This document shows positions 1,434 through 40,734 of a stretch of DNA of 49,799 nucleotides, piece after piece. The position numbers and the translations under genes were made by a program. Each line of letters begins with the position of its first letter. The stretch's first letter is position 1. This DNA comes from Chiloscyllium plagiosum. Taxonomy: Eukaryota. The notes under the pieces were generated by a model. That model searched no databases. It had not been told where the DNA came from and saw nothing but the letters and a program-made list of their open reading frames with translations. The stretch lies in assembly GCF_004010195.1 (NCBI RefSeq), contig NC_057754.1:504369-554167 (forward strand), given 5' to 3'.

Positions 1434-1448
1434 GAGGCCAGCAATAGT

Positions 1449-7053: not shown

Positions 7054-7132
7054 TTAGAAAGTAATGCTCCAATTTGGATTATCTGTTAAGCAGGATCGAT
7101 CTAGAAGTCCTGTGGTGTCTGTATCATTTAGC
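7054..7132 (-). CDS. SPINK-like gene A exon 4 ((W)LNDTDTTGLLDRSCLTDNPNWSITF*)
   Basis: Strong acceptor ttttccttctttttcag|; phase-compatible; places Cys VI 17 residues after Cys V; AATAAA about 20 nt after the stop. Confidence 0.8.
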
Positions 7133-7869
7133 CTGAAAAAGAAGGAAAATTGTTAAGTAATTGTTTTATTTTTGCCATCACACTTTGCCATAGAATCTTG
7201 TAACAAGCTCACTCCATGTTAAACAATAAATCATGAGTTCTTTCCACCAACTGCAATGGTATATCAACAAGTTAAATGGCAAAAAGAAATCCTGCAGTGT
7301 GCACCAGATTTCTCTGCCAGTCAGTCACATGAGCCAGGAGACAAGTTTGCCATATCATTCTTTCGGGGTTATATCTCCTCTGCTTAATCATCTTTTAAAA
7401 AAATAGCTACAGTAGATGGGAATAAAATAGGAGCTATAATGTAGGGAGAAAGTGCTGCTGGTCTTGATTTTTTCTGTGTTAAGCCCTGCTCTGGGTCCTC
7501 TTTCTCATCTAGAAATTGAGTAACGTTAGCATGGACAGGACAGAAAGCTGAGATTATTGTTTTCACTGTTACCTTGGCATATTTGGTGACACATTGCCTC
7601 TGACTCTGAAGTCTGTGAGTTTGAGCCTTACTGAAGGATTGCTACAGACCAGGAAGTTCTTCCAGAAACTTTTCAAGAAGTTGAAGGGAAGGTGACAGGA
7701 AGGGCAAATAATCAGGCAACTTGGTACTAAGGAAAAACTCCTACCTCCACCTCAGAAGTTATGTCCTGGTGAGGAAAACCTATGGTCAGCGTCCCTGACC
7801 TGTGACCAATTGAGACCCTTTAACATTGGAACAGGAGCGGGCTGTTTAGCTGCTTGAGTCTCATTTGGA

Positions 7870-9766
7870 GGGCAAGCCAGGAGCAGCACCTGGCACACCT
7901 AAAAATCTGGAGAAGCTACCAAACAGGACTACTTGCATGCCAAAAAGTATAAGCAGCAACTGATAGACAGAACTAAGCAACCCTACAACTAATGGATCAT
8001 ATCTAAGCTCTGTAGTCCTGTCAAATCCAGTCATGAATGGTGGTGGACACTTCCTACCCTCAATAATGAAAGAGCCAACACAACAATACAAAAGGTAAAT
8101 CTGAAGCATTCATAACAAACTTCAGACAGAAGTACCGAATGGATAATCCTCTCAGTCTCCTTAGGTAGTCCCCATGATCATGGATGACAGTGTTCAGCTA
8201 CTTCAATTTATTCCATGTGATCTCAGGAAATGTTTAGAGGCATTGGATACTGCAAAGGCTATGGGCCTAGACAACATTCAGACAATTGTACTGAAGACTT
8301 GTGCTGCAGAACTTGCTACTCCCCTTTTCAAGCTGGTCCAGTACAGTTGCAACACTGGCATTAACCCAACAATGTGGAAAATTGTCCAGGTATGCCGTGT
8401 ACACTAAAAGCAGGACAAATCCAACCTGGCCAATTACCATCCCATCAGTCTACTCTCAATCATCAGTAAAGTGTTGGAAGATGTCATCAACAGTGTGATC
8501 AAGTAGCACCTGCTCAGCAACAAGCTGCTCAGTGACACCCAGTTTGGGTTCCACCAGTTTGGATTCCACTCAGCTCCTGACTTCATTACAGCTTTGGATC
8601 AAACATGGAAAAAAGAGTTGAATTCAGAGGTGAAAGTGACAGCCCTTGTTAACAAGGTCACATTTGACAAAGTGTGGCATTAAAGAGCCCTAGCAAAACC
8701 GGAATCAATGGGCACTGGGGGCAAACTCTGCACTGGTTCGAGTCATACCCTGGCTCATAGGAAGATGATTATGGTTGTTAGAGGTCAGTGACCACAGCTT
8801 CAGGACATCTCTGCATGTGTTTCTCAGGAAAATGTGGAAGACCCAACTATCTTCAGCTGCTTTAACAATGAACTCCCTCCCATCACGGATCTTCGCCAAT
8901 GATTGCACAATGTTCAGCATTATTCACGGCTCCTCAGATACTGAAGCAGTCGATGTTCAAATGCAACAATGCTGGACAATATCCAGGCTTGGGCTGCAAA
9001 ATGGAAAGTAACATTTGCACCACACAAATGTCAGACAATGACAATCTCTAATAAGAGACAATATAACCACCACCACTTGACATTCTTTGGTGCTATCATT
9101 ACCGATCCCCCCACTATTAATATCCTGGAGGGGTTACCATTGACCAGAAACTCAAGCAGACTCGCAACATAAACACAGTGGCTACAAGAACAGATCAAAG
9201 CTAGGATTATTGCAGTGATAAACTCGTCTCCCGACTCCCCTCCAGTCTCTAAAAGCCAGGAGTGTAATGGAATCCTCCCAACTTGACAGGATGGGTGTAA
9301 CTCAAAAAGCTTGACAACATCCAGGACAAAGCAGCCCGCTTGATTGGCACCTCATCCACAAACATCCACTCTCTCTACCACCGAGGCCCAGTAGCAGCAG
9401 TGTGTATACTATCTTCAAGGTGGACTGCAGAAATTCACTAAAGATCCTTAGACAACCCCCTCTAAATCCATGACCACTTCCATCTAGAAGGACAAAATCA
9501 GCTTATACATGGGAACACCATCACCTGCAAGCTGCCCTCTAAGCCACTCACCATCCCAACTTGGAAATATATCACTATTCCTTCAGTGTCACTGGGTCAA
9601 AATCCTGGAATTCCCTCCCTAAGGGCATTGTTGATCAACCTACAGCACGTGGACTGCAGCAATTCAAGAAGGCAGCTCATCACCATCTTCTCAAGGGTAA
9701 TTAGGTACAGGCAATAAATGCTGGCCCAGCCAGCGACCCCACGTCTCATGCGTGAATAAAAAAAAG
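7870..9766 (+). mobile_element. Non-LTR LINE of the CR1/L2 group (second family), RT region to A-rich 3' end
   Basis: LDTAKAMGLDNI..VLKTCAAELATPL, FAND (FADD), WAAKWKVTFAPHKC; ends gaataaaaaaaa. Confidence 0.85.
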
Positions 9767-10666
9767 ATTCATTGAGATCTTGGTTGGACTGTGGCCTAAC
9801 TCCATATACCTGCCTTTCGCCATATCCTTTCATACCCTTGCTTAACAGAAAAACTATCTCAGATTAGAATAAACAACTGCCATTGTCATCATATAGAATA
9901 CAGGGAGAACTAGCTATTTGTATACAGAACTAGCTTGAAGGTAGAAGAGTAAGGGTGACGGTGGAGGGTTGCTCTTTAGACTGGAGGCCTATGACCTGTG
10001 ACGTTCCACAAGGATCAGTGCTGTGTCTACTGCTTTTCGTCATTTATATAAATGATTTGGATGTAAACATGGGAGGTATAGTTAGTAAGTTTGCAGATGA
10101 CACCAAAATTGGAGATGTAGTGGACAGCAAAGAAGGCTACCTCACAGTACAACGGGATTTTAATCAGATGGGCCAATGGGCTGAGGAGTGGCAGATGGAG
10201 TTTTGGAGAGGCAAATCAGGACAGGACTTATACTTAATGGTAAGGTCCTGGAGAGTGTTGCTGAACAAAGAGACCTTGGAGTGCAGGTTCATAGTTCCTT
10301 GGAAGTGGAGTCACAGAGAGATAGGATAGTGAAGAAGGCATTTGGTATGCTTTCTTTTATTGGTCAGAGTATTGAGTATAGGAGTTGAGGGGTCATGTTG
10401 CGGCTGTACAGGACATTGGTTAGGCTACTTTTGGAATATTGTGTGCAATTCTGTTCTCCCTCCTATCAGAAGGATGTTGTGAAACCTGAAAGGTTTCCAA
10501 AAAGATTCACAAAGATGTTGCCAGTTAGGAGGGTTTGAGCTATAAGGAGAGACTGAATAGGCTGGGCCTGTTTTCCTGGAGCGTTGGAGGCTGAAGGGTG
10601 ATCTTATAAATGTTTATAAAGTCATAAGGGGCATGGATAGGGTAAATAGACAAGGTCTTTTCCTTG

Positions 10667-11116
10667 AGGAGAAAGTGAGGTCTGCAGATGCTGGAGATCA
10701 GAGATGGAAATGTGTTGCTGGCAAAGCACAGCAGGTCAGGCAGCATCTAGGGAACAGGAGAATCGACGTTTCGGGCATTAGCCCTTCTTCAGGAATGAGG
10801 AAAGTTGGTCCAGCAGGCTAAGATAAAAGATAGGGAGGAGGGACTTGGGGGAGGGGCNNNNNNNNNNNNNNNNNNNNNNNNNNNNNNNNNNNNNNNNNNN
10901 NNNNNNNNNNNNNNNNNNNNNNNNNNNNNNNNNNNNNNNNNNNNNNNNNNNNNNNNNNNNNNNNNNNNNCATTTCCGATGCCCCTCCCCCAAGTCTCTCC
11001 TCCCTATCTTTTATCTTAGCCTGCTGGACCAACTTTCCTCATTCCTGAAGAAGGGCTAATGCCCGAAACGTCGATTCTCCTGTTCCCTAGATGCTGCCTG
11101 ACCTGCTGTGCTTTTC
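10667..11116. mobile_element. Penelope-like insertion with inverted pLTR arms around an assembly gap
   Basis: 16-bp TSD caaggtcttttccttg (10651-10666 / 11117-11132); arms are reverse complements, each with CTGAAGA..GAAAC-GTC. Confidence 0.85.
10858..10969. other. Assembly gap (112 N)
   Basis: Run of N. Confidence 1.
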
Positions 11117-12214
11117 CAAGGTCTTTTCCTTGGTTTGGGGAGTCTAGAACTGGAGGGCATAGGTTTAAGGTTTCAAGGGAAAGATTTAAGAGGGACCTTA
11201 GGGGCAACATTTTCACGCAAAGGGTGGTGCGTGTATGGAATGAGCTGCCAGAGGAAGTGGTGGAGACTAATACAATTACAATGTTTGAAAGGCTTCAGGA
11301 TGGGTATATGAATTGAAAGGATTTAGACGAATATGGGCTGAGTGCTGGCAAATGGGACGAGATTAATTTAGGATATCTGGTCAGCATGGATGAGTTGGAC
11401 CAAAGGGTTTGTTTTTGCGCTGTACATCTCTATGAGTCTAAGTGCTTCCAATCATCTTTCCTTCACCGTCTGGCCCTAATTCTCAGACTATGCCTCCTCG
11501 TTCTAGACTCTCTAACAAGTAGAAATAATTTACCTTTATCTATCCCGTCTTTCCTGTTATTATCTTGACGAATTCAGTCGCGTTACCCCTTACACTTCTA
11601 AGTGCTGTGATGTGGAGGTGCCAGTGTTGGACTTGGGGTGGACAAAGTCAGAAATCACAAGACACCAGGTTTCACTCCAACAGGTTTATTTGAAGCCGCA
11701 AGCTTTTGGAGCACTGCTCCTTCATCCGGTTAATTCACTCCCTATTGCACTAAAACCTGATATCGGGTGACTTCTGACTTTCTAACTTCAAGGGACTACA
11801 GGCCTAATTTGTATCATTTCTTCTCATAATTTAACCCCTGTAGTTTTACGAATATTACCTCGACTACAGGCCTAATTTGTATAATTTTTCCTCATAACTT
11901 AACCCCTGCTGTCTTGGTATTACTTGTAAAACTATGTTGTACTTCCTCCAAAACCAATATATCCTTTCTAAGGTGTGATAGAGAGTAGGAACAGCAATAG
12001 ACTATTTGGCTCTTCAAGCTTGCTCTGCTGTTCTATGAGGTCATGCCTAATCATTGTACTCAATTGCATGTACCCACTTTCACCCCATAATCTTTGAACC
12101 CTTTTGCCCTAGGAATTATATCTAACTCTTTCTTGAAAACAAAGTGGTTTGTTAATGATTATTTAAAGTCTTCTCCACAGCTCTGGTCAATTAACTTTGT
12201 TCCAGGTGGATGAG

Positions 12215-13360
12215 AAAACTTAAGAAAGAACACCAAAAATGAGAGCAGGAATAGGCCACCTGGCTCCTTGAGCCTGCTCCACCATTCATTAAGATCGTGG
12301 CTGATCTTATCGTCCACTTACCCGCCTGATCACCATAATCCTTAATTACTTTACTGTTCTAAAATCTATCTATTATTGCTTTAAAAATATTCAATAAGGT
12401 AGCGTCAACTGCTTTACTGGACAGGGAATTCCACAGATTCACAACCCTTTGGATGAAGAAATTCCTCCTAACTCAATCCTAAATCTGCTACGCTTATGCC
12501 CCCTAGTTCTAGTTCCACCCGCCAGTAGAAACAACCTCTTTTTATCTATTCCCTTCATAATTTTATATGTTTCTATAAGATCCCCCTTCATTCTTCTGAA
12601 TTCCAGTGAGTATAATCCCTGTCTGCTCAACATTTCCATGTAAGCCATCCCTCTTAACTCTGGAATCAATCTATTTAACCTCCTCTGCACTCCCTTCAGT
12701 ACCAATGCATCCTTTCTCAAGTAAGGAGATCAAAATTGTACACAGTACTCCAGGTGTGACCTCACCAGCACCCTATACAACTGCAGCATTATCTCCCTGT
12801 TTTTAACTCTATCCTTCCAGCTATGAAGGACAATATTCCATTTGCCTTTTTAATTACCTGCTACACCTGCAAACCAACTTTTTTTGAGATTCATGCACAA
12901 GGATGCCCAGGTCCATCTGCACAGCAACACACTGCATTTTTTCACCATTTAAATAATAGTCCATTTTGCTGTTATTCCTACCAAAATGGGTGACCTCACA
13001 TTTACGAACATTGTACACCATCTGCCAGAGCTTTGCCCTCTCATCTTAGTGTCATCTGCTAATTTTGACACACTATACTTGGACCCCAACTCCAAATCAT
13101 CTATGTAAATTGTAAACAATTGTGGTCCCAACACTGATCTCTGAGGCACACCACTAGCCATTGATCACCAACAAAAAAACAACCATTTATCCCCACTCTT
13201 TTCTGTTAGTTAATTAATCCTCTGTCCATGCTAACATATTACTTGTAACGCCATGCACCTTTATCTTATGCAGCTGCCTTTTGTGTGGCACCTTGTCGAA
13301 TGCCTTCTAGAAATCCAGAAACACCACATCAGCTGGTTCCCCCTTGTCCATTGTAATGTC
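12215..13360 (-). mobile_element. CR1 LINE fragment
   Basis: [49 protein letters not shown]. Confidence 0.9.
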
Positions 13361-14305
13361 CTCAAAACTGTCAACCTTACCAAGTAATCCAGGTTGGAGA
13401 GTGAGTGAGGCCCTGGTTTGTCCTAATCTTGAGCTGATTGGAGGTACAGGTGGGGGTAGGGGGAAGTTGAGGCTTTGCTGTTCCAGGCAATAATGTACCA
13501 AGTAGCTTGCTGGCTGACCCCTTAGGTTCCTGATACAGACAAAAACAGAAATCACTGGAAAAACTCAGCGGACTGGCAGCATCTGTGGAGAAAAAGCCTA
13601 GTTAATGTTTTGGATCCAGTGACCCTTCTTTAGAACTCCAATAGTGAGAACTACCAAAATGTTAACTTTTCTTTCCAGCACTTGCTCTTTTTGTGTCTGA
13701 TTTTCAGCATCTAGTTTTTTGTTTAGTGCCTAATAGGTATTTGATACGGCCTGGCTTTCTCATTGGTGGTGGGGTGGGTTGTTCAGCATGCTATGATGTT
13801 CATCCCCAAATTCTAACCCAAAAACAGAAAATCCCAGCTATGTTGTCAGTTGAGAGAAGATGACAAACATAGGCACAGTTTAGATGATTGCAAAGGATGC
13901 CATAGTAAAAATTTAAGAAAAACAATAAACTGCCCTGAAAAACTGTTCTCTTTCAACTAATCACCTCAAAAAACACACACCTTTCCCTTGTTACTAGCTT
14001 GTCAGTGCTTTGTTATTGTCTCTGCCCTAATTTAAAGTGTTCTGGAATGACCTGTGGGATGTCATAAGGTGTCATGCAAATGCTCATGATTTTCCTATTA
14101 CTGGTGAGAATGTGCAGCATGTTGGTGCTATGTAGTCCAGTTGTGAGGCTATTCTATATCAAGCATAGCAATAATGAGTTTAATGAATAAGAAAAGCTCA
14201 TGGTATCATTTTGAAATAAATAGTAGCCAGCGTCTTTTTTTAAAACTTTGTTCCTGTGAATTAGGCATTGCTGGCAAGATCAATATTTGTTGCCCAACTT
14301 TCATT

Positions 14306-14572
14306 CATAGAATAGAATCCTTATAGTGTGGAAGCAGGCCATTAGGTCCATTGGGTTCACACCGACTCTCCAAAAGGCATCCTGCCAGACCTAGCCCACT
14401 ACCCTATCCCTGTAACCCTGCATTTCCCTCAGCCTACACATCCCTAGACACTATGGACAATTAAGCATTGGCCAGTCCACCTAATATGCACATATTTGGA
14501 TTGTGGCAGGACACTGGAGCACCCAGAGGAAATCCACGGAGACACAAGGAGAATGTGCAAACTCCTTGCAGA
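14306..14572 (-). mobile_element. HE1-type SINE, 5' truncated
   Basis: Similar to the full copies at 26413 and 34548. Confidence 0.8.
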
Positions 14573-15326
14573 AAGTCATTGTTCATGAACTGAGTGGCTT
14601 GCTCAGCAATTTGAGAGGGCAGTTAAGAGTTAACCCATATTACTGTGGGCCAGGAGGCACATATAGGCCAGTCCAGGTAAAGATGGCAGGCATCCTTCCC
14701 TAAAGGTCCTTAGACAACCAGATGAGTTTTCCAATAATAGCTTCATGGTCACCATTTCCAAGACTAATTTTCACTTCTATATTTATGGAATTTAAATTGG
14801 TCCAGCTGCTGTGATGGGACTTGAGCTTGTATTTCCAGAGGATGTATCTGACCTTCTTGGTTACTAACATTATCACTATGCTAATACATGATAGAACTGA
14901 TGGTAATGGTGTACAAGTGCTAGCTTGGATATACTCCTCCAGCTTATCAGTAAAAGTGTTTACTAATCTGTTATAAATAGCAAGGTAATGCTGGGCTAAA
15001 ATTGGGGATCAATATGATTAATGACAGCGCAGGCTGTTTGATGTTTTTAAACATTGAGGTGAGGTAAATCATTTTCACTTTCAACATTTCCAAATCACCT
15101 TCCAGTCCCTATGATGTGGTGGGAAGTCAATTTGCTAAAACCCAATCAATCTTCAGAAATCTTGTTTTTGCTTCTATTTCAATGGAAATAACTTGCAGGT
15201 TTTTGGGAAACTACTTGATGCTATATTCAAGTATTAATTTATGCTAGGCAGTGGTGAAGCAGGGGCAGAGGAGGCATTCACAGCTGAAATTTTGTCAAGT
15301 ACAAAAGGGACTCCAAAGACACTAAC

Positions 15327-15448
15327 CAGCCGAAAAGACAAAGTAGACAGCGATATCCATAAGTTGGACCTTCTGGAGTGCACAACACAGGTATCGTCAA
15401 GGGACACACCGGAAATTGCCAGATGTCATCACAACGGGGGTCCAAGGG
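15327..15448 (-). CDS. SPINK-like gene A exon 3 (Kazal core, Cys I-V)
   Basis: Acceptor ctgttcatttcag|, donor TG|gttagt; CPLTIPVLCTPEGPTYGYRCLLC fits the Kazal signature C-x7-C-x6-Y-x3-C-x2-C. Confidence 0.9.
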
Positions 15449-15637
15449 CTGAAATGAACAGGCTGATAATATAAGCAACTAAAAAACATCAGCTATCTTT
15501 GAGAATAACAAAATAAACTCAAAATGGGATCATAAGAAACAGCCTACTGATGGTAAGGGGAAAAAGTATAGTTGGTGGGGCTACTGTAATTTTCAGTCTC
15601 TTTTAACAAGCAAGCAGATTTAAGCTTAAAACCTCAC

Positions 15638-15672
15638 CAGATTGGCATCCACAGAAGAAATCCAAAGTAGAC
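15638..15672 (-). CDS. SPINK-like gene A exon 2 (35 nt, (G)LLWISSVDANL)
   Basis: Acceptor ctgcctttttcag|, donor |gtgagg, phase 1-0, same size as gene B exon 2. Confidence 0.85.
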
Positions 15673-16208
15673 CTGAAAAAGGCAGACACACACAATTATC
15701 ACAAAGTCTAAATAGTACGAAGATCTGTAGTAAATAATTTGTTTACTGAGAAAGGAAACATTTTGAAATTATGGGGATTCCTACTTAATTCAAATTAGAT
15801 CTTTTAATAAATTGGATTGTTCAAATGATTTCAGTTGAAGATTATTGATTGTATTTACTCACGATTACAATAAACAATCAATAAAGACAATTAGCAGTTC
15901 TCTTCAACAAATCCTGATTATGACTGTTGACTATTACATTGTTGCATTAATGGAATGGAAGATCTGAATTTGTTTTCTGCTGATGGACATTTAAATTTTA
16001 TCAATGCTAACCTATCTATTCCCTTCAGATAAATTCACAGTGACAGTGCAGGTCCTTTTAAAATACCACCACTCAGATCAAACCTTTTATTAAAGGTAGA
16101 ACATTAGTTCAGTTAGAATTCACATTTATAAGAATTCTCTCTTTGATATCCCAGTGTTCTACAAATATCAAACAAAAATCAAAAAATATAATCATAAGTA
16201 TTACCCAC

Positions 16209-16263
16209 CAGTGAAAATGAGAACCACAATCGTGATAATGAGAGAGATTCCATGTATCTTCAT
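16209..16263 (-). CDS. SPINK-like gene A exon 1 (signal peptide MKIHGISLIITIVVLIFT-G), 55 nt coding
   Basis: cttcacaATGAAG start context, hydrophobic stretch, donor G|gtgggt; same length and start context as gene B exon 1. Confidence 0.88.
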
Positions 16264-20130: not shown

Positions 20131-20224
20131 GTTGACTTGTCACTTTCCAGTCCAAGTTTGGATATTGTCCAGATGTTGCAGCATTTGGATATGGACTGCT
20201 TCAGTGTCCTATTGCTCAGCATTT

Positions 20225-20488: not shown

Positions 20489-21828
20489 AAAAAAAAGGGA
20501 CAGTTCATCTCCTGGCCCAATTATTCCCCTTCTTACATCCTTTGCCACCTTCAGGAATGAGAAAACTCCACCCCCAGTTTTGATACATTTCTCTTACTCT
20601 TTTTATGTGACATTGTGCAATCAACTGTGTAACAATCAAACTTAATGAGCTTGTTCCTTATCAATAACTTTAATGTTACCAGGTTATTCTTAAATAATTT
20701 CACTCTTGTTATATATCATTGCTAATTCACCAAATAAAACCTCTTAATAAATAAATCTTTGATTCATTGCCATTTTGTACCAGTCAATCTGGACATTTTC
20801 TTTTAAATTATTAGATTTCTGGCACTTCTTATCAACTCATTAAAGTTGTCTAAGATATTTGTGTCAATGTGCACTGGCATGTCATTTCATTCAATTTACT
20901 GAAGTGGCTATGCCTTTAAAGTCAGTCCTGGTATAAAATTTTAAATTAACAAACCTTACCTTAACAGACAAAAGCTAAATATTCTATATATGGTGAGAAA
21001 TCAATATGTCAGTGATAATTTAGCAAGCTTCAGAACCCTTTCATTAACCCTTTCTTTACATTGGTTTTGCATTTTTACTTTATTTCCAATTCACCAATGA
21101 CATCAAGATTTGAACAAAAATGTTTTCCTCATAACAGCTTCACTTCAGTTACTTTCTTTCCCACGATGGTGTGTTGAATGATTTCCACAGTGCTGGATGT
21201 TACTGATTAAGCCTGAATGAGATTGAGAATACCTGTCAATCTATGATCATCTTGTGACTCTCTTGCTAAATGAAGAAAAACAGTTCCTTTTAAATTTCTG
21301 ACAAGCTGAATGTCTGTTGGCTAAGGAATTCAGTGAATGTATAGAGGACCATGTTTTTGTTCCCTGGGTTTTAGTGAAATGATCCAGCATTTAAAATCAA
21401 AATATTGTGGATGCTCAAAATCTGAAACTAACACCAAAAGTGCTGCAGAAGCTCAGTAGGTCTGGCACCATTTGTGGAGAGAGAAATCGAGTTAATGTTT
21501 TGAATCCAATATGGTCTTTGGTGTTTTAGAGAAAAGTCATATCAGATATTAAATGTTAACTGTCTTTCTCTCTCCGCAGCTGCTGCCAGGCCTGAGTTTC
21601 TTCAGTATGTTCTGTATTTGTTTTAGACTAAGTTATTCATTAATCTGTTCTGTGTTGTTTGTGTTTCATTTGGTAAATTTGTAAATAAATTCTGTTTTGT
21701 TTAAATCTAAGCGGGTTGACCAAATGCATCACTTCTGGAATATCCGTATCTGCAAAGTTAGTGTCCAGGTTACTTTCTTAAAATGTTGTGAGGGGGTTTG
21801 GCCTGGTCCATAGCAGTAGCCAAGCTGT

Positions 21829-26208: not shown

Positions 26209-26412
26209 GCAGCCAGTAACCATCACAGACACAGAAGCAAAAAAAAAAACACGATCTTCTCATCCATCAACCTCCATGTACACACAGGAAGCAACCAGAG
26301 AGCAGCGATACCAACCGGGGCAGCATCAACGACATCCACCACTGTCCAAGCAGACATATGCTCATTCCTGAAGTGGTTTCAAGGTCCTCAAGACCCTCTC
26401 TGTCCCTGTTTT

Positions 26413-26730
26413 GGGCGGCACGATGGCACAGTGGTTAGCACTGCTGCCGGAGACCCGGGTTCAATTCCCGCCTCAGGCGACTGACTGTGTGGAGTTTGCA
26501 CATTCTCCCCGTGTCTGCGTGGGTTTCCTCCGGGTGCTCCGGTTTCCTCCTACAATCCAAAACATGTGCAGGTCAGGTGAATTGGCCATGCTAAATTGCC
26601 CGTAGTGTTAGGTATGGGGTAAATGTAGGGGTATGGGTGGGTTGCGCTTCGGCGGGTCGGTGTGGACTTGTTGGGCCGAAGGGCCTGTTTCCACACTGTA
26701 ATCTAATCTAATCTAATCTAATCTAATCTA
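26413..26730 (+). mobile_element. HE1-type SINE, young full-length copy with (TAATC)n tail
   Basis: A box TGGCACAGTGG, B box GGTTCAATTCC, V-SINE core, microsatellite tail. Confidence 0.9.
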
Positions 26731-29226: not shown

Positions 29227-29379
29227 TTTGAGTTTACAAGGCATTTCTTCTGGAGAAGGTTAATGAGATTGTAGTGGGGCAGTGAGTTTACAAGCTATTC
29301 AGGACAGAGTTTATAAGGTATTAATTTAGATATGTCAATGAGGTATTAATGACACATTGAGTTAATTAAGGTGTTAATT

Positions 29380-29556
29380 TGTAAATGAGTTAGAAAGGTA
29401 TTATTCTTGGATGAGTTTGCAAGATATTAATTCTTGAGTGAATTCGTGAGATATTAATTCTTAAGTGACTTAATGAGATATTAATTCTTGAGTGAGTTAG
29501 TGAGATATTAATTCTCGAATTAGTGAGGTATTAATTCTTGTGTTCTTGAGATATTA
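29380..29556. repeat. AT-rich minisatellite, ~27-bp unit gagatattaattcttgagtgagttagt
   Basis: About 6 imperfect tandem units; more degenerate copies at ~28860-29010 and ~29310-29380. Confidence 0.8.
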
Positions 29557-29618
29557 CCTTGTGATACCTAAAGCTGCATTTATAAAGATAACGCCAAGGT
29601 AATGCTTTCAAACATGAT

Positions 29619-29624
29619 TTTATT
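29619..29624 (-). promoter_or_regulatory. Probable polyadenylation signal of SPINK-like gene B
   Basis: AATAAA on the minus strand about 120 nt downstream of the stop. Confidence 0.6.
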
Positions 29625-29744
29625 TCATTCACAATTCTACTATTCATTAAAATATGCTTTTTTTAAAAGTTTGCTGCTGCAATCAAACAAATTCTTAATT
29701 TCGTTTTTGAAAAGACAGGTTGAAATGTTATCATTGTTGTGGAA

Positions 29745-29790
29745 TTAACATTCTCCAAAGTGTTTTATTAAGATCTTATTGCCACTCAAT
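29745..29790 (-). CDS. SPINK-like gene B exon 4 ((R)LSGNKILIKHFGEC*)
   Basis: Acceptor ttctgttttcttttcag|; ends I-x3-G-x-C-stop as in SPINK1-type proteins; Cys V-x17-Cys VI. Confidence 0.93.
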
Positions 29791-30132
29791 CTGAAAAGAA
29801 AACAGAAATCATAATTAAGACCCAGACTTGCACCGTAAGACACTGGAGCACAAGTAGGCTGTATGGGCCATTAAACCTGCACCGCCATTCAAAGAGATCA
29901 TGGCTGATCTAATAATCCTCAACTCCACTTTCCTGCTTTTTCTTCCTTAACCCTTGATTCCCTTACTGATTAAGTATCAGTCTATCTCAGTCTCGAATAT
30001 ACTTAATGACCCAGACTCTGAGGTAAAAAATACTCCACAGGTTCACCACCCTGTGAGAGAAGAAATCCCTCTCAATCACTGTCTTTAGATCAAGATTGGT
30101 GATATAGTGGACAGTGAAGAAGGTTATCTAAG

Positions 30133-30981
30133 TTCAAAGTTTATGAGAAGATTTGTAGCTCGGATGCTCGTTGCTGTGGTTCTGTTCGCCGAGCTGGAAG
30201 TTTTTGTTGCAAACGTTTCGTCCCCCGTCTAGGTGACATCCTCAGTGCAGTCCTTGCATGGGATTTTGTACACTACATTAGTTTTGCTCATGCTGGGTAT
30301 CGGGTCCTTCGTTCTGGTGAGTTGTTGTCTGAGAGTGGCTGTTGGTTTGTGTGCTGTTATAAGTCCTAGTGGTCGCAGTAGTCTGGCTGTCATTTCAGAG
30401 ATGTTCTTGATGTATGGTCCCATGCAAGGACTGCACAAAACACCATATAGGACAAACAGGAAGGCAGCTAACGATCCGCATCCACGAATATCAACTAGCC
30501 ACGAAACGACACGACCAGCTATCCTTACGGGGTAAACGTAGGAGTATGGGACTGGGTGGTATATGCTTCGGCGGGTCGGTGTGGACTTGTTGGGCCGAAG
30601 GGCCTGTTTCCACACTGTAAGTAATCTAATCTAATCTAATCTAGTAGCCACACACGCAGACGACAAACAACATGGATTTGACTGGGACAACACTACCATT
30701 ATAGGGCAAGCGAAACAAAGAACAGCCAGGGAATTCCTAGAAGCATGGCACTCATCCACAAACTCCATCAACAAACACATCGACCTGGACCCAATATACT
30801 GGCCACTACAGCGGACAGCTGAAACTGACAACCGGAAGCGGCAGGGACAGGCCACTATAAATGCCGGAGGAAACACCACAGAAGCGCTTCACATGAGGCT
30901 TCCAAGCACTGAGGATGTCACCTAGACAGGGGACGAAACGTTTGCAACAAAAACTTCCAGCTCGGCGAACAGAACCACAGC
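30133..30981. mobile_element. Penelope-like element (Poseidon-type) with inverted pLTRs, internally inverted GIY-YIG region and nested HE1 tail (~30528-30641)
   Basis: 13-bp TSD aaggttatctaag (30120-30132 / 30982-30994); KTNVVYKIPCKDC on minus, PCKDCTKHHIGQTGR..AREFLEAWHS on plus. Confidence 0.9.
30906..30945 (+). ncRNA. Minimal type I hammerhead ribozyme motif (inverted twin at 30209-30248, minus)
   Basis: gca-CUGAGGA-u-gucaccu/aggggac (stem II)-GAAAC-GUU^ugc; stem I gca/ugc; palindromic ACGU stem III typical of Penelope-associated hammerheads. Confidence 0.75.
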
Positions 30982-32225
30982 AAGGTTATCTAAGATTACA
31001 AAGAGTCTTCATCAGTTGGGTTAATGGGCTGAGGAGTGGCAGATGGATTTTAATTTGGATAAATGCGAAGTATTGTATTTTGGTAAAATAAACAAGGGCA
31101 GGATTTATACAATTAATGGTAGGACCCTGGGTAGTTTTGTAGAACATAGAGACTTATGTTCAGGTACATAATTCATTGAAATTTGTGTCATAGGAAGACA
31201 GGATAATTAAGAAGGCATTAGCGCGCTTGCCATCATTGCTTAGACCTTTGAGTATAGAAGTTGGGACTGCATGTTGAGGTAGTACAGAATGTTGGCGAGG
31301 CCTGTTCTGGAGTTCCAAGTGCAGTTCTGCTGTAGGAAGGATATTATTAAATTACAGAAGGTTCATAAAAGATTTACCAGGGTGTTGCCAGAATTGGAGG
31401 ATTTGATTTATAAAAATAGAATGGATAGGCTGAGACTTTATTCACTGGAGGGTAGGAGGTTGAGGGGTGACCTTATAGAGATTTATGAAACCATGAGGTG
31501 CATAGCTAAGGTGAAATCAAGGGTCTTTTTGCGAAGGGGCATATTTTTAAGGTGAGAGGAAAAGGTTTAAAAAGGACATGAGGGGCACGTTTTTGTACAG
31601 ACAGTGGTTTCATCAAAGGGAGATCATGCCTGACAAATCTATTGTAATTCTTTGATGAGGTAATGAGCAAGTTAGACAAACAAGAGCTAGTGGACCTGTT
31701 CTATTATATTCCTAGCTTCATTACCTAAGGGGCCGATGTTTACTTTGGCCTCTCTTTATAATTTTTAAGGAAGCTCTTATTGTCCATTTCTATATTACTC
31801 ACTAGTTTACCCTCATTTTATTTCCCCCCATCTTTTCTTGACTTGTAAAAATTTCCCAATGCTATCACTTATCTTTGTCATATTATGTATTTTTTTCAAT
31901 TTGATACTATCTTTAACTTGCTTGGCTAACCATGGTTGGTTTTATCTCCTTCAAATCTTTCTTCCACTCTGGGATCTATCTTTACTGTGAGCCATGAACT
32001 ATTTTATTAAATTAAGTGACCACAGCCCCACTGCAACATTGGGTTATTTTCTTATTAGAGAGAGACAACTGATAGTGGTTTAATTTGAGAGTCTCAGGTG
32101 AGCGGAGAAGTTGAGAATGAGAATCCTTCATAGTAACCTTAGCTGGTATGGGAATTGAATCCACATTGTTGGCACTGCTTTGCCTTACAAACCAGACATC
32201 ACACCAGCTGAGCTAACTTACATAA

Positions 32226-35200
32226 AATATAGAACATTGCAGCGCAGTACAGGACCTTCGGTCCTCGATGTTGCGCTGGCCTGTGGAACCAATCTGAAGC
32301 CTATCCACCCTACACTATTCTGTTTTCATCCAAATGTTTAGCCAATGACCATTTAAATGTCCTTAAAGTTGGCGAGTCTACTACTGTTGCAGGCAGTGCA
32401 TTCCATGCCCCTACTACTCTCTGAGTAAAGAAACTCCCTCTGACATCTGTCCAGTATCTATCAGCCCTCAATTTAAAGCTATGTTCCCTCATGCTAACCA
32501 TCACCATCTGAGAAAAAAGGCTCTCACTGTCCACCCTATCTAACCTTCTGATTATCTAATATGTCTCAATTAAGTCATCTCCCAACAAAACCAGAGTTTT
32601 GTATAGCTGCATAATGACCACGTAGCTCCGAAATTCAATCCCTCTACCAATAAAATCTAACACGCCTTCTTAACAACCCCATCGACCTGGGTGGCAACTT
32701 TCAGGAATCTATGTACGTGGACACATGGATCTTTCTGCTCATCTACACTACCAAGAATCTTACTATTAGCCCAGTACTCTGCATTCCAGTTGCTCCTTCC
32801 AAAGTGAATCACCTCACACTTTTCTGAGTTAATCTTCATTTGCCACCTCTCAGCCCAGCTCTGCAACTTATCTATGTCCTTCTGTAACCTGCAACAGCCT
32901 TTAGCGCTATCCACAACTCCACTGACCTCTGTGTCATCTGCAAATTTACTAACCCATCCTTCTATGCCCTCATCTAGGTCGTTTATGGAAATTACAAACA
33001 GCAGTGGTCCCAAAACAGATCCTTGCAGTACACCAAAAGTAAATGAACTCCAGGATGAACATTTCCCATCTACCACCACCCTCAGTTTTCTTTCAGCTAG
33101 CCAATTTCTGATCCAAGCCGCTAAATCACCCTCAATTCCATGACTCCGTAATTTCTGCAGTAGCCTACCGTGGGGAACCTTATCAAACGACTTACTGAAA
33201 TCCATGAGCACCACATCAACCATTTTACCCTCATCCACCTGTTTGATCACATTCCCAAAGAATTCAATAAGGTGTGTGAGGAATGATCTACCCTTCACAA
33301 AATCATGTTGACTGTCCCTAATCAACTTATTCCTTTCTAGATGCTTATAAGTCCTATCTCTTACAACCTTTTCCAACACTTTACCCACAACCAAAGTAAG
33401 GCTCACTGGTCTATAATTACCGGGGTTGTCTCCACTCTTCTTCTTGAACAAGGGTACAACATTTGCTATCCTCTAGTCTTCTGGCACTGTAGACAATGAT
33501 GACATAAAGATCAAAGCCAAAGACTCTGCAATCTCCTCTCTGGATTCCTAGAGAATCCTAGGATAAATCTCTTCTGGCCCAGGGGACTTATCTATTGTTA
33601 CACTTCCCGGAATTGCCAACACCTCCTCCTTGTGAACCGTAATCCCATCTAGCCTGCATCTCAGTATTCTCTTCGACAACATTGGCTTTTTCCAGTGTGA
33701 ATACTGATGAAAATACTCATTCAGTACTTCACCATCTCCTTGGACTCCATGCACAACTTCCCACTACTATCCTTGATTGGCCCAAATCTTTCTCTAGTCT
33801 TTCTTTTATTCCTGATATACCTATAGAAAGCTTTAGGGTTTTCCTTGATCCCATCTGCCATCAACTTCTCGTGTCCCCTCCTGGCTCTTCTTAGCTCTCT
33901 CTTTAGGTCTTGCCTGGCTAATGTGTAACTTTCATGCGCCTGAACTGAGCCTTCACATTTCATCCTAACATCAACTTTCCTCTTCCTCTTGAAAGGAGAT
34001 TCACTTCTTTAGTAAACCATGGCTCCCTCGCTCAACCACTTCCACCCTTTCTGACAGGTACATACTTATCAAGGACACACTGTAACTGTTCCTTGAATAT
34101 GCTCCACATTTCAATTGTGTCCAATCCCTGCAGTTTCCTTCCCCATCCTATGCATCCTAAATCTTGCATAATCACATCATAATTGCCTTTCCTCCAGCTA
34201 TAACTCTTGCCTTGCGTTATGTACCTATCCCTTTCCATCACTAAGGTAAACATAACAGAATTGTAGTCACTATCACCAAAGCGCTCACCTACCTCCAAGT
34301 CTAACACCTGGCCAGGTTCATTACCCAGTACCAAATCCAGTGCAGCCTCGCCCCTTGTTGGCTTGTCTACATACTGTGTCAGGAAACCATCCTGCACACA
34401 TTGGACAAAATCTGACCATTTAAAGTACTCAAACTATAGTATTTCCAGTCAATATTTGGAATGTTAAAGTCCCCTATAACAACTACCCTGTCACTCTTGC
34501 TCCTATCGATAATCACCTTTGCTATCCTTTCATCTCTGGAACTATTGGGCGGCACGGTGGCACAGTGGTTAGCACTGCTGCCTCACAGCGCCAGAGACCC
34601 GGGTTCAATTCCCACCTCAGGCGACTGACTGTGTGGAGTTTGCACGTTCTCCCCGTATCTGCATGGGTTTCCTCTGGGTGCTCCGGTTTCCTCCCACAAC
34701 ACAAAGATGTGCAGGTCAGGTGAATTGGCCATGCTAAATTGCCCGTAGTGTTAGGTAAGGGGTAAATGTAGGGGTATGGGTGGGTTGCGCTTCGGCGGGG
34801 CGGTGTGGACTTGTTGGGCCGAAGGGCCTGTTTCCACACTGTAAGTAATCTAATCTAATATTCGGAGGTCTATAGAAAATTCCCAACAAGGTGCCCTCTC
34901 CTTTCCTGTTTCTAACCTCAGCCCATACTAACTCAGTAAACGAGTCCTCAAACATCCTTTCTGCCACTGTATTACTGTCCTTGACTAAAAATACCACACC
35001 TCCCCCTCTTTTACCATCTTCTCTGTTCATACTGAAACATCTAAATCCTGGAACCTGCAACAACCATTCCTGTCCCTGCTCTATCCATGTCTCTGAAATG
35101 GCCACAACTTTGAAGTCCCAGGTACCAACCCATGCTGCAAGTTCACCGACCTTATGACAGATGCTCCTGGCATTGAAGTAGACACACTTCAAACCACCTT

Positions 35201-36570
35201 CTTGCTTGCCAGTGAACTCTTGCAAACTTGAAAGCTCATTTCTGACCTCACTACCTCAACCTCCTGGACACTGGAACTACATTTTAGGATTCCCTTCCCC
35301 TTCTGAATTAGTTTAAACCTTCCCAAAGAGCATTAACAAATCCCCCCCCCCCCCAGGATATTAGTACCCCTCTGGTTCAGGTGTAGACCATCCTGTTTGT
35401 AGAGGTCCCACCCACCCCAGAATGAGCCCCAATTATTCAGGTATTCAAAACCATCCCTTCTGCACCATGCCTACAGCCACGTGTACAACTCCTCTCTCTC
35501 CCTATACCTGTCCTCGCAAGCACGTGGCACAGGCAACAAACCAGAGATAACAACTTTTTTTTCTAGCACTAAGCTTCCATCCTAACTCCCTGAATTTCTG
35601 CCTTAAATCCCAAACCCTTTTCCTACCTATGTCATTAGTACCTATGTGGGCCACGACTTGGGACTGCTACCCCTCCCCCTCAAGGTTCCCAAAAACACAG
35701 TCCAAGACATCATGGACCCTGGCACCTGGGAGGCAACACACCAACCATGAGTCTCTCTCGTGCCCACAGAAATTCCTATCTGTCTCTCTAACTATGGAGT
35801 CCCCAGTGACTAATGCTCTGCTCATCTCCCCCCCTTCCCTTCTGAGCAATATGGACAGACTCTGTGCCAGAGACCTGTACCCCATTGCTTACCGCTAGTA
35901 AGTTATCCACCTCAACAGTATCCCAAATGATATACTTGTTATTGAGGGGAACAGCCGCAGGGGTTCCCTGCACTGCCTGCGGGTTCCCTTTCCGTCCCCT
36001 CACTGTAACCCATCTGCCTCTTTCTTGTACTTGAGGTGTGACTACCTCCCTGTAACTTTTCTCAATAACCCACTCTGCCTCCCTAATGATCCAAAGTTCA
36101 TCCAGCCCCAACTCCAATTCCCTAACATGGTTTTTGAGGAGCTGGTGTTGAGTGCACTTCCCGCAGATGAAGTCAGCGGGGACAGTAGTGGTGGCCCTTA
36201 CCTCCCACATTCTGCAGGAAGAACATTCAACTGCCCTAACCGCCATTACCACTATTCTAAATTCCCAAAGAGACTGTAGAAAAATAAAGAATGAAAAAAC
36301 TAGTTATTTTACCAATCTGGCGCACAGAACCTTTTTTTTAGTTAGAGGAGGAGGACGGGTGGAAGGCACTACCTAAGTAGTATTTCTGGTAATGTAACCA
36401 CCCAAATATATTACTTCAGTTACTCAGCAATCCCGTGCCTGTTAATGCTCAGCATGTGCTCTGCCTATTCACGAGGTAAGTGATTCACCTTTCTGGTCGA
36501 TGCTCCCACTCTTCCTGCTGCTGAAACAAAAATGGAGGGCCCCGACACACGAGGTAAGTTTTTAAATGCC
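32226..36570 (-). mobile_element. Near full-length CR1 (HER1-like) LINE: ORF1 (Zn finger plus SGNH esterase) and ORF2 (APE endonuclease plus RT), disrupted
   Basis: ORF1 AVECSSCRMWE..CGKC, ALVTGDSIVR..VCCLPGARV; ORF2 LKCVYFNARSI, NYRPVSLT, QGSVLGPLLF, SKFADDT. Confidence 0.93.
34548..34858 (+). mobile_element. HE1-type SINE, full-length, nested in the CR1 endonuclease region
   Basis: Near-identical to the 26413 copy; short tatt duplication at the flanks. Confidence 0.9.
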
Positions 36571-36899
36571 CCCACTTAAATTTCTGCAAATTTTCCTCAA
36601 TCGTCTTTTCTTCTAAATTCTATTACCAGTCAACCCCAGCCAATTCTGTCCTCACCCCTATATAATTAACCTTTTTTTAACTTCAGCACAATTGTTTCTG
36701 ACCCAAGTTTCTCACTCTCAAACTGAATATAAATTCCACTATGTTATGATCACAGTTCCTTTAGGGGATCTTTTACACTGAGATCATTATTAAACCTGTC
36801 TCGTTATACATTGCCAGATCTAAAGTAGCTTGATCCCTGTAGAATCCAAGACATATTTTTGTTTAGATGCCTTAAAAATCTCCTGATTTATTCTTTGTC

Positions 36900-37840
36900 T
36901 TACAGGAGGATAGATTGTTAGCTGAAAGGCAATAGATTGCAAAAGGAGAATGTGCAATGAGACCTGGGTATCCTTGTACACCAGCCGCTGGCAATAAGCA
37001 TATACATGCACCAGGGTGGAGAAGACAAATGTTATGTTGGCCTTCATAGTGAGAATTGCAACACAATAACCTACTTTCTTCCCACACTTTTTGATCCTTT
37101 TAGCCCTAAGAACTATACCTAATTCTTTCTTGAATACATTCAATCACACGAGGTAAGTTTTTAAATGCCCCCACTTAAATTTCTGTAAATTTTCCTCAAT
37201 CGTCTTTTCTTCTAAATTCTATTACCAGTCAACCCCAGCTATCATAGAGGATATTCCACTATCATAGAGGATATTCCACTAAACATAGAGGAATTGAGTA
37301 CAGGAGTAGAGAATTACAAATTCTTGGTGCGATCACATCTGGAATATTGTGCACAGTTTATTCTCCTTATTTAAAGAAGAATGTTCTGGCTATGGAGGGA
37401 GTGCAGCAAAGGTTTAACAAACTGATTCCTTGGATAACAGGACTGATATAGGAAGACAAACTTGAGTTTAGAACAATTAGGGAGAATCTCACAGAAACTT
37501 ATAAAATTCTAACAGGGGGTAATCACACAGGGAGTCCAAAATCAGGAGCCACAGTTTAGTGTATGGGATATGCTATTTAGGATGACCATAAGAAGAAAGA
37601 TCTTCACCTAGAGAGTGATGATACTTTAGAATTCTCTGCCACAGAAAGTGATTGAGGCCAAAATATTGAATGTATTCAAGAAAGAATTAGGTATAGTTCT
37701 TAGGGCTAAAAGGATCAAAAAGTGTGGGAAGAAAGTAGGTTATTGTGTTGCAAGATCAGCCGTGATCATATTGAATGATGGAGTAGGCTTGAAGGGCTGA
37801 ATGGCCTATTCCTGTTCTTCTATGTTTGGTGTTTCTACAT
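36900..37840 (+). mobile_element. CR1 LINE 3' fragment containing a templated-insertion scar
   Basis: Degenerate CR1 C-terminus and 3' UTR. Confidence 0.8.
37056..37292. repeat. Composite local duplication: inverted 89 bp + direct 95 bp + 20-bp tandem
   Basis: 37056-37144 = reverse complement of 37665-37753; 37145-37239 = 36546-36640; (atcatagaggatattccact)x2 at 37241-37280. Confidence 0.9.
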
Positions 37841-38411
37841 GTCTATTGATGTTAGAGGGCCTTCTCTCACCAGTGTATTTTTCTCATTGTTGTTTCTTAA
37901 CCTCCAACATTATGAAGTCGACATCATCTCATTTCATGCTGTCAAACGTATTGCTCAACATATTAACAAAACTACTTCACCAAGCTTCACTTCTTTCCTG
38001 CAATCCTTAGGTTTTTTTTTAGTTAGCTAAATACAGTGTGATAATACAACAACTCATTTTTTCTTGTTCATTGAGAAATCCTGGTGTATATATTCTTTTA
38101 GCCTGAATTAAACATTTGGATGGTTTAAACAAGTTCTCACATTTATGACAACTCTGGGAATACTCAGACTTGATTTACACACACTATTACAGCGGGTCGT
38201 GACAAGAAAAAGCACCATCTTTATAGATTGGGTTCTATTGTCGGTTGTTGAGTAAATTGACTACCTTAAAATAAGGCAAATCATTCCTGTAGATTTTCAG
38301 ACAGCCAACATTGCTCAAATCAAAAATGGCCGGAGTACACATCCTGTAATTTGGTGGTCACAGACTTTTCATTTAATTCTCTATTGTGAGACTAACAGCA
38401 AAGACACTGAC

Positions 38412-38524
38412 CTTATTTCACCACACAGTACACATCGGTTTGGAAACGTATTTCCATCGATATCACAAACTGGAATATATTCTCTAGTACAGATAGGGGC
38501 ATTAGGATAGTCTTCACAGTGTGG
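38412..38524 (-). CDS. SPINK-like gene B exon 3 (Kazal core PHCEDYPNAPICTREYIPVCDIDGNTFPNRCVLCGEI)
   Basis: Acceptor ccattttcag|, donor AG|gtcagt; textbook Kazal C-T-R-E-Y-x-P-V-C-x2-D-G-x-T-[YF]-x-N-x-C-x2-C. Confidence 0.95.
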
Positions 38525-39660
38525 CTGAAAATGGTAAAATTAATACATAGGTATTTTAAATATCTGAATGTGAAATTCAGTTGCATAGTGCAGCTTCTAA
38601 CATGTTGGTATGATTCTATTTTGATGGCACACACAGTCCATCCAGCTGGTGAGGCCCTAGAGTTTCAATGAAGAACACAAGCTTCATACTATGGCCTCTG
38701 CCAAGTTGAAGCTGGTCGTCTCCATTCTCCTGGATACATCAATGCTTAATCCAGCCTCCGAGTATCTTATTTTCATATCTAGATGCTGACCAGTGGACTC
38801 ACTTTGACTGGTCCTGGGATTTCTGGTATGTCATGACCTCTCCAGAGGCCAATTGTGGACAGAACCATTAACCCTAATAACTCTGTTCACACAATGGCAT
38901 CAATATATGAATATGCCTCTTGGTTATGTACCTTTTTTTATGAGTCTGCTGAATTGAATGGCACAATCACAACTGGATCCCATTGCATCATCTCCTGTTT
39001 CCATTTGCATCTACTCATGATCGATCATTTATAGGACCCATTTGTCCCAAATAAAATTCCAAACTAGCCACTGAACTGACTACTGGCTTGTTAACAAGCT
39101 CAATTGTTTAATAATCTGAATCAGGCCCTATACTGGCCTCTGCCTTCTACCTACAAAAGTATTGATGGTCAAAACAATGACAGCAAACCAGCGCAATAGC
39201 CAATTACATTGATATTCACACCATCCTGCTCACTCCCACCCTCCCCACCACCATAAGGTGAGCATTCTGCCCCTTCTCCTTTAGTATTTCCTTAAACATA
39301 TGTGACAACTCAGAGAGCCTGGGCCTAATAATTATTACTTGGTGTACCTTCTGTTTGACTCTCTCTGGACATGGTGTTCTTTCAGTCAGATTTGTCAATT
39401 AAATATGAACCAGTGTGTGTTTTGGGTCAGTTTGAGCACAGACGCATCACAGCAGAAAAACCCAGCGCTGACCTTCCCTGTGTGAATCGCTGCTGATGCA
39501 AAATTAGATTCCCTCATGGATGTTTCCCTTCAGGACCAATGAGCCAATGACTAGGAATTGGAGACCTACTGCTCTATAATCATCAATGTTGGACTGAGCA
39601 TAAAAACAACATTAAAACAACAAGGAGAATTTAACATCAACAGAACATGTTAAAATTAGA

Positions 39661-39905
39661 AACCAAAAGAGAAAATGCTGGAAAGTCTCAGCAGGTCTGG
39701 CAGCATCTGTAAGGAGAGAAAAGAGCTGACGTTTCGAGTCTAACTGACCCTTTGTCAAAGCCCATGAGCTTTGATAAAGGGTCAGTTAGACTCGAAATGT
39801 CAGCTCTTTTCTCTCCTTACAGATGCTGCCAGACCTGCTGAGATTTTCCAGATTTTTTTCTTTTGGTTTCAGATTCCAGCATCCGCAGTAATTTGCTTTT
39901 ATCCA
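39661..39905. mobile_element. Penelope-derived fold-back insertion
   Basis: About 100-bp inverted arms around a 6-nt loop (39762-39767); 14-bp TSD atgttaaaattaga (39647-39660 / 39906-39919). Confidence 0.85.
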
Positions 39906-39926
39906 ATGTTAAAATTAGACTTCCAC

Positions 39927-39961
39927 CTCATTCTTATCGGAAAGGTGAATCTTGGCCAGAT
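39927..39961 (-). CDS. SPINK-like gene B exon 2 (35 nt, (D)LAKIHLSDKNE)
   Basis: Acceptor ccatttcctgtttcag|, donor GAG|gtggaa (weak), phase 1-0 linking exons 1 and 3 in frame. Confidence 0.8.
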
Positions 39962-40679
39962 CTGAAACAGGAAATGGAGAACTCATTAAAAGGGCACAAA
40001 CTTACATCGACCACATAGCACATACACATTTACTGAGCAGTTGGAGAGACCATTGATAGTGGCTATTCTACTTAGCAAAGCAACTAAATAAATCATCAAG
40101 TAACTAAAGATTTGAAACAAGGTTAGAAAAATGACATTGCTGCCTCAAACTACAATCCTTTAGCATTTTGGCTGTTAGATAAGAGTTCAACATGTCCCAA
40201 TTCAGTCATCTGAAATAAAATTATAAGTACCACTGCTCAGATCTAGGACTCCTTAAGAATAATATTTTGTGAATTGGTGAAACCATTAAATCTGTCCAAT
40301 AAAATATTAGTTATTGTTATCAAGTGGTTTTCTGTGCTATTTCAGATTAAGTATTACATCTGAATTGTCCTGTGTGCTTAATAGGCATGTCAGAGGAACA
40401 TTTTTCATTTTAAAACTTGTAAAATTCCTTCTAATCAATCAGAAGGACTGATGATGTGTGTTTAGGGATACCAAGGAGGAAATCTCAATGGATGTGTAGC
40501 TGTTTACTCCCACACTCCTGTTCATCAGGAAACTTTTACAAGGACTGGCATGATCTCTCAGTTCGACTTTGCACAGTTCATGGTTGCTAGTCTATGGTTC
40601 TAAAGGATGTAGGACAGTATTTAGCAGATATATGTTTCCAAGTAACCACAAAATATGCAAACGTAGCAACATTGCTCAC

Positions 40680-40734
40680 CAACAGTAGCAAGGACCGTAG
40701 TCATAGTGACAAGAAACACTCTGCCCATCTTCAT
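40680..40734 (-). CDS. SPINK-like gene B exon 1 (signal peptide MKMGRVFLVTMTTVLATV), 55 nt coding
   Basis: cagcttcacaATGAAG start, donor G|gtgagc. Confidence 0.9.

Follow-up and report, generated by a model that had tools for sequence, protein, structure and literature searches.

Mammalian SPINK genes share an intron phase pattern of 1/0/2. SPINK1 is described as a four-exon gene whose product has six Cys residues and three disulfides (PMC8873584). In a solved Kazal complex, an Asn side chain fixes the carbonyls of P2 and P1′ in place and maintains the rigidity of the reactive-site loop (PMC3082530). SPINK4 and SPINK1 are also reported to act through EGFR (PMC11245600 and PMC8873584). Two genes with the SPINK layout, here termed gene A and gene B, lie on the minus strand of a 49,799-nucleotide stretch of DNA from Chiloscyllium plagiosum (contig NC_057754.1, positions 504,369 to 554,167; hereafter the window). 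Both are real genes, and sequence comparison indicates that the pair arose long ago by tandem duplication of a SPINK-type gene with four exons and a single Kazal domain.

Gene A is a further member of a known and already annotated kind and amounts to routine annotation. Gene B carries the interest. It is a modest but real new Kazal variant and a naturally occurring test of the Kazal scaffold, in which the Asn that holds the loop has been replaced by Tyr and the replacement retained in one shark and one ray. Together, the two genes offer a direct test of whether a Kazal domain still inhibits without its brace or how it becomes a ligand that does not inhibit, as has been proposed for mammalian SPINK1 and SPINK4.

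A tandem pair of SPINK-type genes

The gene models come from a six-frame scan for the Kazal Cys pattern, with matches near 38500 and 15400, combined with reading of the DNA and a scan for splice acceptors. Each gene has four exons. Gene A (40734-29745) gives an open frame of 82 residues and gene B (16263-7054) one of 96. All six introns begin with GT and end with AG, each gene shows the phases 1/0/2, and the third introns measure 8621 nucleotides in gene A and 8194 nucleotides in gene B, the latter holding an unsized assembly gap. The features are as follows, in window coordinates.

40734-40680, minus strand: gene A exon 1, coding part (55 nucleotides); ATG, signal-peptide core and phase-1 donor, matching the N-terminus of both shark orthologues
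39961-39927, minus strand: gene A exon 2 (35 nucleotides); phase-0 donor, collinear with the shark orthologues
38524-38412, minus strand: gene A exon 3 (113 nucleotides); Kazal Cys1-Cys5, reactive site Thr-Arg-Glu-Tyr (P2-P2′)
29790-29745, minus strand: gene A exon 4 (46 nucleotides); last strand, Gly-x-Cys6 and stop
29619-29624, minus strand: putative polyadenylation signal AATAAA of gene A, 120 nucleotides past the stop
16263-16209, minus strand: gene B exon 1, coding part (55 nucleotides); ATG, hydrophobic signal and phase-1 donor
15672-15638, minus strand: gene B exon 2 (35 nucleotides); phase-0 donor
15448-15327, minus strand: gene B exon 3 (122 nucleotides); divergent Kazal Cys1-Cys5, Pro-Leu as P2-P1; in the motif GPTYGYRC, Tyr takes the place of the conserved Asn
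7132-7054, minus strand: probable gene B exon 4 (79 nucleotides); Cys6 and an 11-residue tail, with two N-glycosylation sequons (exon start and tail)
7028-7033, minus strand: putative polyadenylation signal AATAAA of gene B, 20 nucleotides past the stop

A preliminary description of this DNA had read two same-strand, four-exon genes with opening exons of 55 and 35 nucleotides, phases 1/0/2, a shared Cys spacing and AATAAA downstream, and each of these elements was found again. The SPINK-type layout, with the domain split over exons 3 and 4, likewise holds in both genes. The spacing of 8-7-10-2-17 is that of the classical six-Cys Kazal domain, the sixth Cys of gene B depending on the exon 4 assignment, and the P1 residue is Arg in gene A and Leu in gene B.

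Several scans of the window single out these two genes. The five-Cys pattern of exon 3 occurs twice in six frames and is absent from all of 200 dinucleotide-block shuffles. A search of both strands for an ATG, a hydrophobic stretch and a phase-1 donor returned only the starts of genes A and B. Both N-termini combine a basic start with a hydrophobic core (9-residue hydropathy peaks of 2.1 and 3.1, respectively), and the 19-residue core of gene B could be an uncleaved anchor instead of a cleaved signal. Exon 3 of gene B alone lies in a stop-to-stop frame of at least 60 residues (66 residues); the frames of the other seven exons span 27-52 residues, which fits the earlier remark that seven of the eight exons escape the open reading frame (ORF) track. 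Neither the Cys pattern, nor tblastn with both exon 3 frames, nor the exon 1 scan returned a third Kazal copy in the window. A single two-domain gene was considered and ruled out, as A and B each start with a separate ATG exon and end with a separate stop and AATAAA, and the orthologues of gene A are 82 residues long.

Ungapped comparison of the two genes gives nucleotide identities of 29/55 for exon 1, 15/35 for exon 2, 45/107 for exon 3 (from Cys1) and 18/46 for exon 4. The stretch just before the ATG is common to both, 14 of 20 nucleotides are identical after the third donor, and comparison of the window with itself yields no long aligned block between the genes. The two domains agree at 13 of 50 positions, yet gene B has a ray counterpart that matches it at 27 of 50, in line with the old local duplication proposed at the outset. 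The models establish for cartilaginous fishes a SPINK organisation of four exons and one domain, represented by two or more paralogues. As the preliminary description had anticipated, orthology to SPINK1, SPINK2 or SPINK4 cannot be fixed for either gene, and in the window no protein gene flanking the pair was recognised.

Gene A and the classical Kazal inhibitors

Gene A very probably encodes a standard-mechanism inhibitor of trypsin-like proteases, as judged from Kazal chemistry. Its product would be secreted, form disulfides 1-5, 2-4 and 3-6, and present Arg to the S1 pocket on an Asn-braced loop. The loop is canonical (Thr-Arg-Glu-Tyr), and the bracing Asn is present two residues before Cys4. 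Exon 3 alone scores 43.4 bits against Pfam Kazal_1 (PF00050; cut-off 21), and the full-length orthologues score 59.5 and 54.8 bits. With exon 3 alone, the Pfam check proposed for both proteins places gene A above the cut-off; gene B falls below it.

The two candidates from a word-limited search are both relatives, namely the predicted RefSeq “ovomucoid-like” proteins XP_038643233.1 (Scyliorhinus canicula) and XP_078061240.1 (Mustelus asterias). Each has 82 residues and aligns to gene A without gaps (67/82 and 63/82 identical), with the same Cys spacing, Arg or Lys at P1 and no notable difference from gene A; over exon 4, 12 and 13 of the 14 residues are identical. The literature searched gave no function for either protein. 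Because these full-length orthologues match, all four exons of gene A are independently confirmed. The expectation that annotation pipelines would easily miss such genes does not hold for gene A, whose full-length orthologues in two sharks are in RefSeq, but it does describe gene B, for which one “uncharacterized” ray gene was found. Small secreted elasmobranch genes can fall below Pfam and remain “uncharacterized”.

Among solved structures, the best single-domain match of gene A exon 3 is SPINK1 (E 1.1e-7). Human SPINK1/PSTI (PDB 7qe9, 7qe8, 1cgi) and the ovomucoid third domain OMTKY3 (1cho) give the best single-domain matches to gene A and to its orthologue, the latter at E 5e-11, and PEC-60/SPINK4 ranks well below SPINK1. 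Gene A differs from SPINK1 and OMTKY3 in having Asp for their Gly after Cys3, and its Cys1-Cys2 gap is longer than that of OMTKY3, whereas gene B lacks the Asn and the Asp of these proteins. Two small lineage marks are common to gene A and both shark orthologues: Asp directly after Cys3, where 40 of 41 Kazal cores in a comparison set described below have Gly, and Phe in place of a Tyr found in 41/41.

Gene B and its altered scaffold

An exhaustive phmmer search with gene B over 1.84 billion representatives gave 15 matches, none of them a B-like shark protein and only one a single-domain relative, at 68% identity. This relative, which RefSeq calls an “uncharacterized protein”, comes from the electric ray Narcine bancroftii and has two isoforms (XP_069750313.1 / XP_069750312.1). 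Five of the 15 matches are unrelated Cys repeats and were excluded from the 13 proteins used for comparison. A word-indexed, word-limited protein search of 5.8 billion clusters gave no candidate with gene B exon 3; when the profile of gene B and the ray protein was used, one of eight candidates was a relative, the ray protein itself, and no B-like shark protein appeared. By title and abstract start, no paper was found to describe a single-domain SPINK gene from a shark or ray, and genome or transcriptome supplements could list such genes.

The Narcine protein is identical to gene B at 24 of 36 positions over the part of exon 3 that starts at Cys1 and at 27 of 50 over the domain, with the same P2-P1 pair and the motif GP[ST]YGYRC. 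Isoform X2 has the gene B spacing of 8-7-10-2-17, including the 17-residue Cys5-Cys6 gap, and isoform X1 has a different last exon with only 5 residues between its last two Cys. Unlike gene B, the ray protein keeps Gly-x-Cys6 and has neither tail nor sequons; P1′-P4′ differ, and its last exon agrees at 3 of 14 residues. By sequence, gene B represents a Kazal variant that is conserved among elasmobranchs and predates the shark-ray split of several hundred million years ago, since its domain is identical to the ray protein at 27 of 50 positions and that of gene A at only 15 of 50; orthology to the ray gene rests on similarity. In the Narcine models a second Met lies 16 residues past the annotated start and opens a 28-residue signal-like stretch, as long as that of gene B; translation may be annotated to begin too far upstream.

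Residues P6-P1 (F-P-V-C-P-L) are identical in gene B and the ray protein, and P1′-P4′ are different at every position. Pro at P2 and Leu at P1 are the commonest residues there in the 41 comparison cores (25 and 11, respectively). Because this pair is kept, weak or narrow inhibition is preferred for gene B. Our first choice, held tentatively and at somewhat under even confidence, is that gene B may encode a weak, temporary or narrow inhibitor of a Leu-preferring protease. Three elements would make up this mode of action: 1) the product would be secreted and retains the six-Cys frame with Pro-Leu at P2-P1, 2) the loop brace would have been rebuilt before the shark-ray split through Gly to Thr, Asp to Glu or Tyr, a new Pro, and Asn to Tyr, and 3) the protein would act as an atypical inhibitor, weaker, temporary or narrow, on a target of chymotrypsin, elastase or subtilisin type. 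A gut, skin or genital-tract secretion would be the most plausible site, the tissue being guessed from mammalian SPINKs. The earlier proposal of paralogues diverged to different protease targets (P1 Arg versus Leu) is borne out as far as the P1 residues differ, but it is too simple for gene B, which lacks conserved scaffold residues and scores under the Pfam cut-off.

The scaffold changes lie between Cys3 and Cys4, where four positions are altered in both gene B and the Narcine protein, three of them to the same residue (Thr, Pro and Tyr). One is a variable position, two residues beyond a conserved Asp, that becomes Pro, which is outside its five commonest residues. Another is the loop-bracing Asn (Asn in 33/41 cores, otherwise Ser in 8/41), which becomes Tyr. 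As Ser stands there in 8/41 cores, the Asn is dispensable for the Kazal fold. The G-x-D-G turn after Cys3 and the Asn (or small polar) brace are both missing from gene B, and a tight canonical inhibitor is an improbable reading of this gene.

A number of observations weigh against this first choice for gene B. The Gly found in 40/41 cores is Thr in gene B and the ray, the Asp found in 41/41 is Glu or Tyr, and the bracing position is Asn or Ser in 41/41 and never aromatic, so the loop of gene B may not inhibit. These counts derive from 41 distinct cores of 13 proteins, many of them near-identical repeats and hence not independent. Exon 3 of gene B alone scores 13.5 bits against Pfam Kazal_1, below the cut-off of 21, and the full-length Narcine proteins match no Pfam family at E<=10. 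A model of the Narcine protein has a mean predicted local distance difference test score (pLDDT) of 53.7 and a predicted template modelling score (pTM) of 0.33, with pLDDT of ∼60-74 over the domain and the order strand-strand-helix. Its best fold matches are Kazal proteins but weak (Foldseek E 0.69; VIA Z 3.3, root-mean-square deviation 3.3, 53 aligned), and the underlying alignment was Kazal-loaded and hence steered toward the Kazal fold. Moreover, only a single relative of gene B was found, and the exon 4 assigned to gene B lacks Gly before Cys6 and shares only 3 of 14 residues with the last exon of the ray gene.

Profile comparisons bear on the fold itself. With an E limit of 10, the gene B/ray profile has 29 matches among solved structures, every one a Kazal protein. 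In a custom Kazal profile, adding exon 4 to gene B gave 13.0 versus 14.9 bits, which is no gain. In the ESM Atlas, the clusters closest to exon 3 of gene B are Kazal clusters (0.86), no more than a lead, and the full Narcine protein falls near unrelated clusters. Gene B thus has a SPINK layout and Cys frame but lies below the Pfam cut-off and lacks the usual loop brace, and it is not filed here as a standard Kazal inhibitor.

A different function is a real, if lesser, possibility: gene B may encode a non-inhibitory, secreted ligand or binding module of Kazal fold that acts through a conserved aromatic surface, with gene A still an ordinary inhibitor. The surface would consist of a Phe that precedes the loop, the Tyr that replaces the Asn and a Trp ending exon 3, all common to gene B and the ray protein and absent from gene A and its orthologues. 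The four scaffold positions altered in shark and ray, three of them identically, speak for such a role. So does the best single-domain solved match of gene B, PEC-60/SPINK4 (PDB 1pce; E 0.049 with gene B and 0.022 with the gene B/ray profile), in which Cys1 and Cys2 are separated by 8 residues, as in genes A and B, and Ser stands in place of the bracing Asn. PEC-60 is not known to inhibit trypsin, a point that a literature search did not confirm. PEC-60/SPINK4 differs from gene B in keeping the VCGTDG core, in having Ser and not Tyr, and in its P1 Arg; the match is weak (E 0.02-0.05), and ovomucoid scores equally. The reported action of SPINK4 and SPINK1 via EGFR provides a precedent for a ligand (PMC11245600 and PMC8873584), but Pro-Leu, a common inhibitory pair, is retained at P2-P1 in both species. 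A broader form of this idea, that gene B founds an undescribed elasmobranch Kazal-fold family which has given up inhibition for secreted signalling or binding through the Phe/Tyr/Trp surface and, because it escapes Pfam, goes without a name or annotation in shark and ray genomes, is doubtful but conceivable.

It is improbable that gene B has fallen silent or is decaying in this species, with the ray gene as a sign that the lineage once mattered. Its exon 4 does look degraded beside that of gene A, and no B-like shark protein appeared in either the word-limited or the exhaustive search. A search of sequence data sets with exons 1-3 of gene B listed no RNA set, which speaks neither for nor against a silent copy; 4 of the 16 entries listed, all from one study, contain the DNA. 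Nevertheless, all four exons are open, its three introns are canonical, the six Cys, a signal-like N-terminus and an AATAAA 20 nucleotides after the stop are in place, and gene B can have had little time to decay, given that it matches the ray protein at 24/36 positions over exon 3.

Doubts about the last exon stand apart from these functional readings. The segment 7132-7054 is probably the last exon of gene B, although it is the least certain part of the model. The assignment comes from a three-part test that asks for a strong acceptor, a Cys at codon 14 and AATAAA within 200 nucleotides of the stop. The segment is the sole one of 1040 downstream AG sites with all three; a site was reached in 4 of 300 shuffles, and the opposite strand of the 49.8 kb gave 1 chance site. 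Its identity to gene A exon 4 (18/46 nucleotides) is like that of exons 2 and 3 (43% and 42%) and is a level reached by 48 of the 1040 sites, and its acceptor is 19/30 identical to that of gene A. In the alignment with gene A, the Gly codon GGA has become CGA and the stop TAA has become TTA. Because of these one-base changes gene B lacks Gly before Cys6 and carries the 11-residue tail.

Alternatively, though this is unlikely, gene B may be real but have its last exon elsewhere (at 12108, in the gap 10859-10970, or beyond the window) or be alternatively spliced like the ray gene. This possibility draws on how little 7132-7054 resembles the last exon of the ray gene, the two ray isoforms that differ in this very exon, the unsized gap within intron 3 of gene B, the chance site on the opposite strand, and the higher score of the repeat-borne site at 12108 against the ray last exon (BLOSUM 26 versus 10). 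Both the uniqueness of 7132 in the three-part test and its resemblance to gene A, in exon and acceptor alike, argue for the segment as assigned, and the 12108 site has a weak acceptor, lies in a repeat and is without AATAAA within 200 nucleotides. The 12108 site (minus strand) lies at a repeat end and reads as a peptide of 15 residues, with Gly-x-Cys where a Kazal domain has its Cys6; it is probably due to chance and possibly an alternative last exon.

Repeats and other features of the window

The pair had been described as hidden in retroelement DNA. The long introns and intergenic DNA are indeed repeat-rich, with 36-47% self-repeat (40% and 47% in the third introns), but none of the 540 coding bases lies in self-repeats, and the genes are better described as interleaved with retroelements. 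An origin of the exons from retroelements was ruled out on the same count, the coding exons lying in unique DNA. The window holds reverse-transcriptase fragments of long interspersed nuclear elements (LINEs), and five of nine ORFs scanned gave RVT_1 or endonuclease matches.

Intron 3 of gene A contains a long broken LINE (32200-36600, minus strand, the same strand as the gene) with endonuclease and RVT_1 pieces and a Cys-rich ORF at 35788-36303 that has no Pfam match. An insert resembling a short interspersed nuclear element (SINE) at 34545-34859 in this LINE is 92% identical to 26411-26717. At a LINE 5′ end, a 95-nucleotide direct repeat (99%) and an 89-nucleotide perfect inverted repeat overlap (36546-37753), which reflects either a recent rearrangement or a local mis-assembly. 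An 813-nucleotide element (30171-30983) has 78-nucleotide, 99% inverted ends and a SINE-like interruption. Its 133-residue frame has no Pfam match and may resemble a Penelope-type GIY-YIG fragment.

The only gap in the window (112 N, 10859-10970) is flanked by a 139-nucleotide, 98.6% inverted repeat (10719-11118 in all) and is probably an assembly artefact; because of it, the true length of gene B intron 3 is uncertain. A tRNA-Trp(CCA) at 1448-1521 (plus strand) has a low Rfam score of 37.2 bits and is possibly the head of a tRNA-derived repeat. Finally, a 236-nucleotide palindrome resembling a miniature inverted-repeat transposable element (39647-39882; 118-nucleotide arms, 90%, no spacer) lies 45 nucleotides downstream of gene A exon 2, and related pieces occur at 21421-21627 and 45711-45850.

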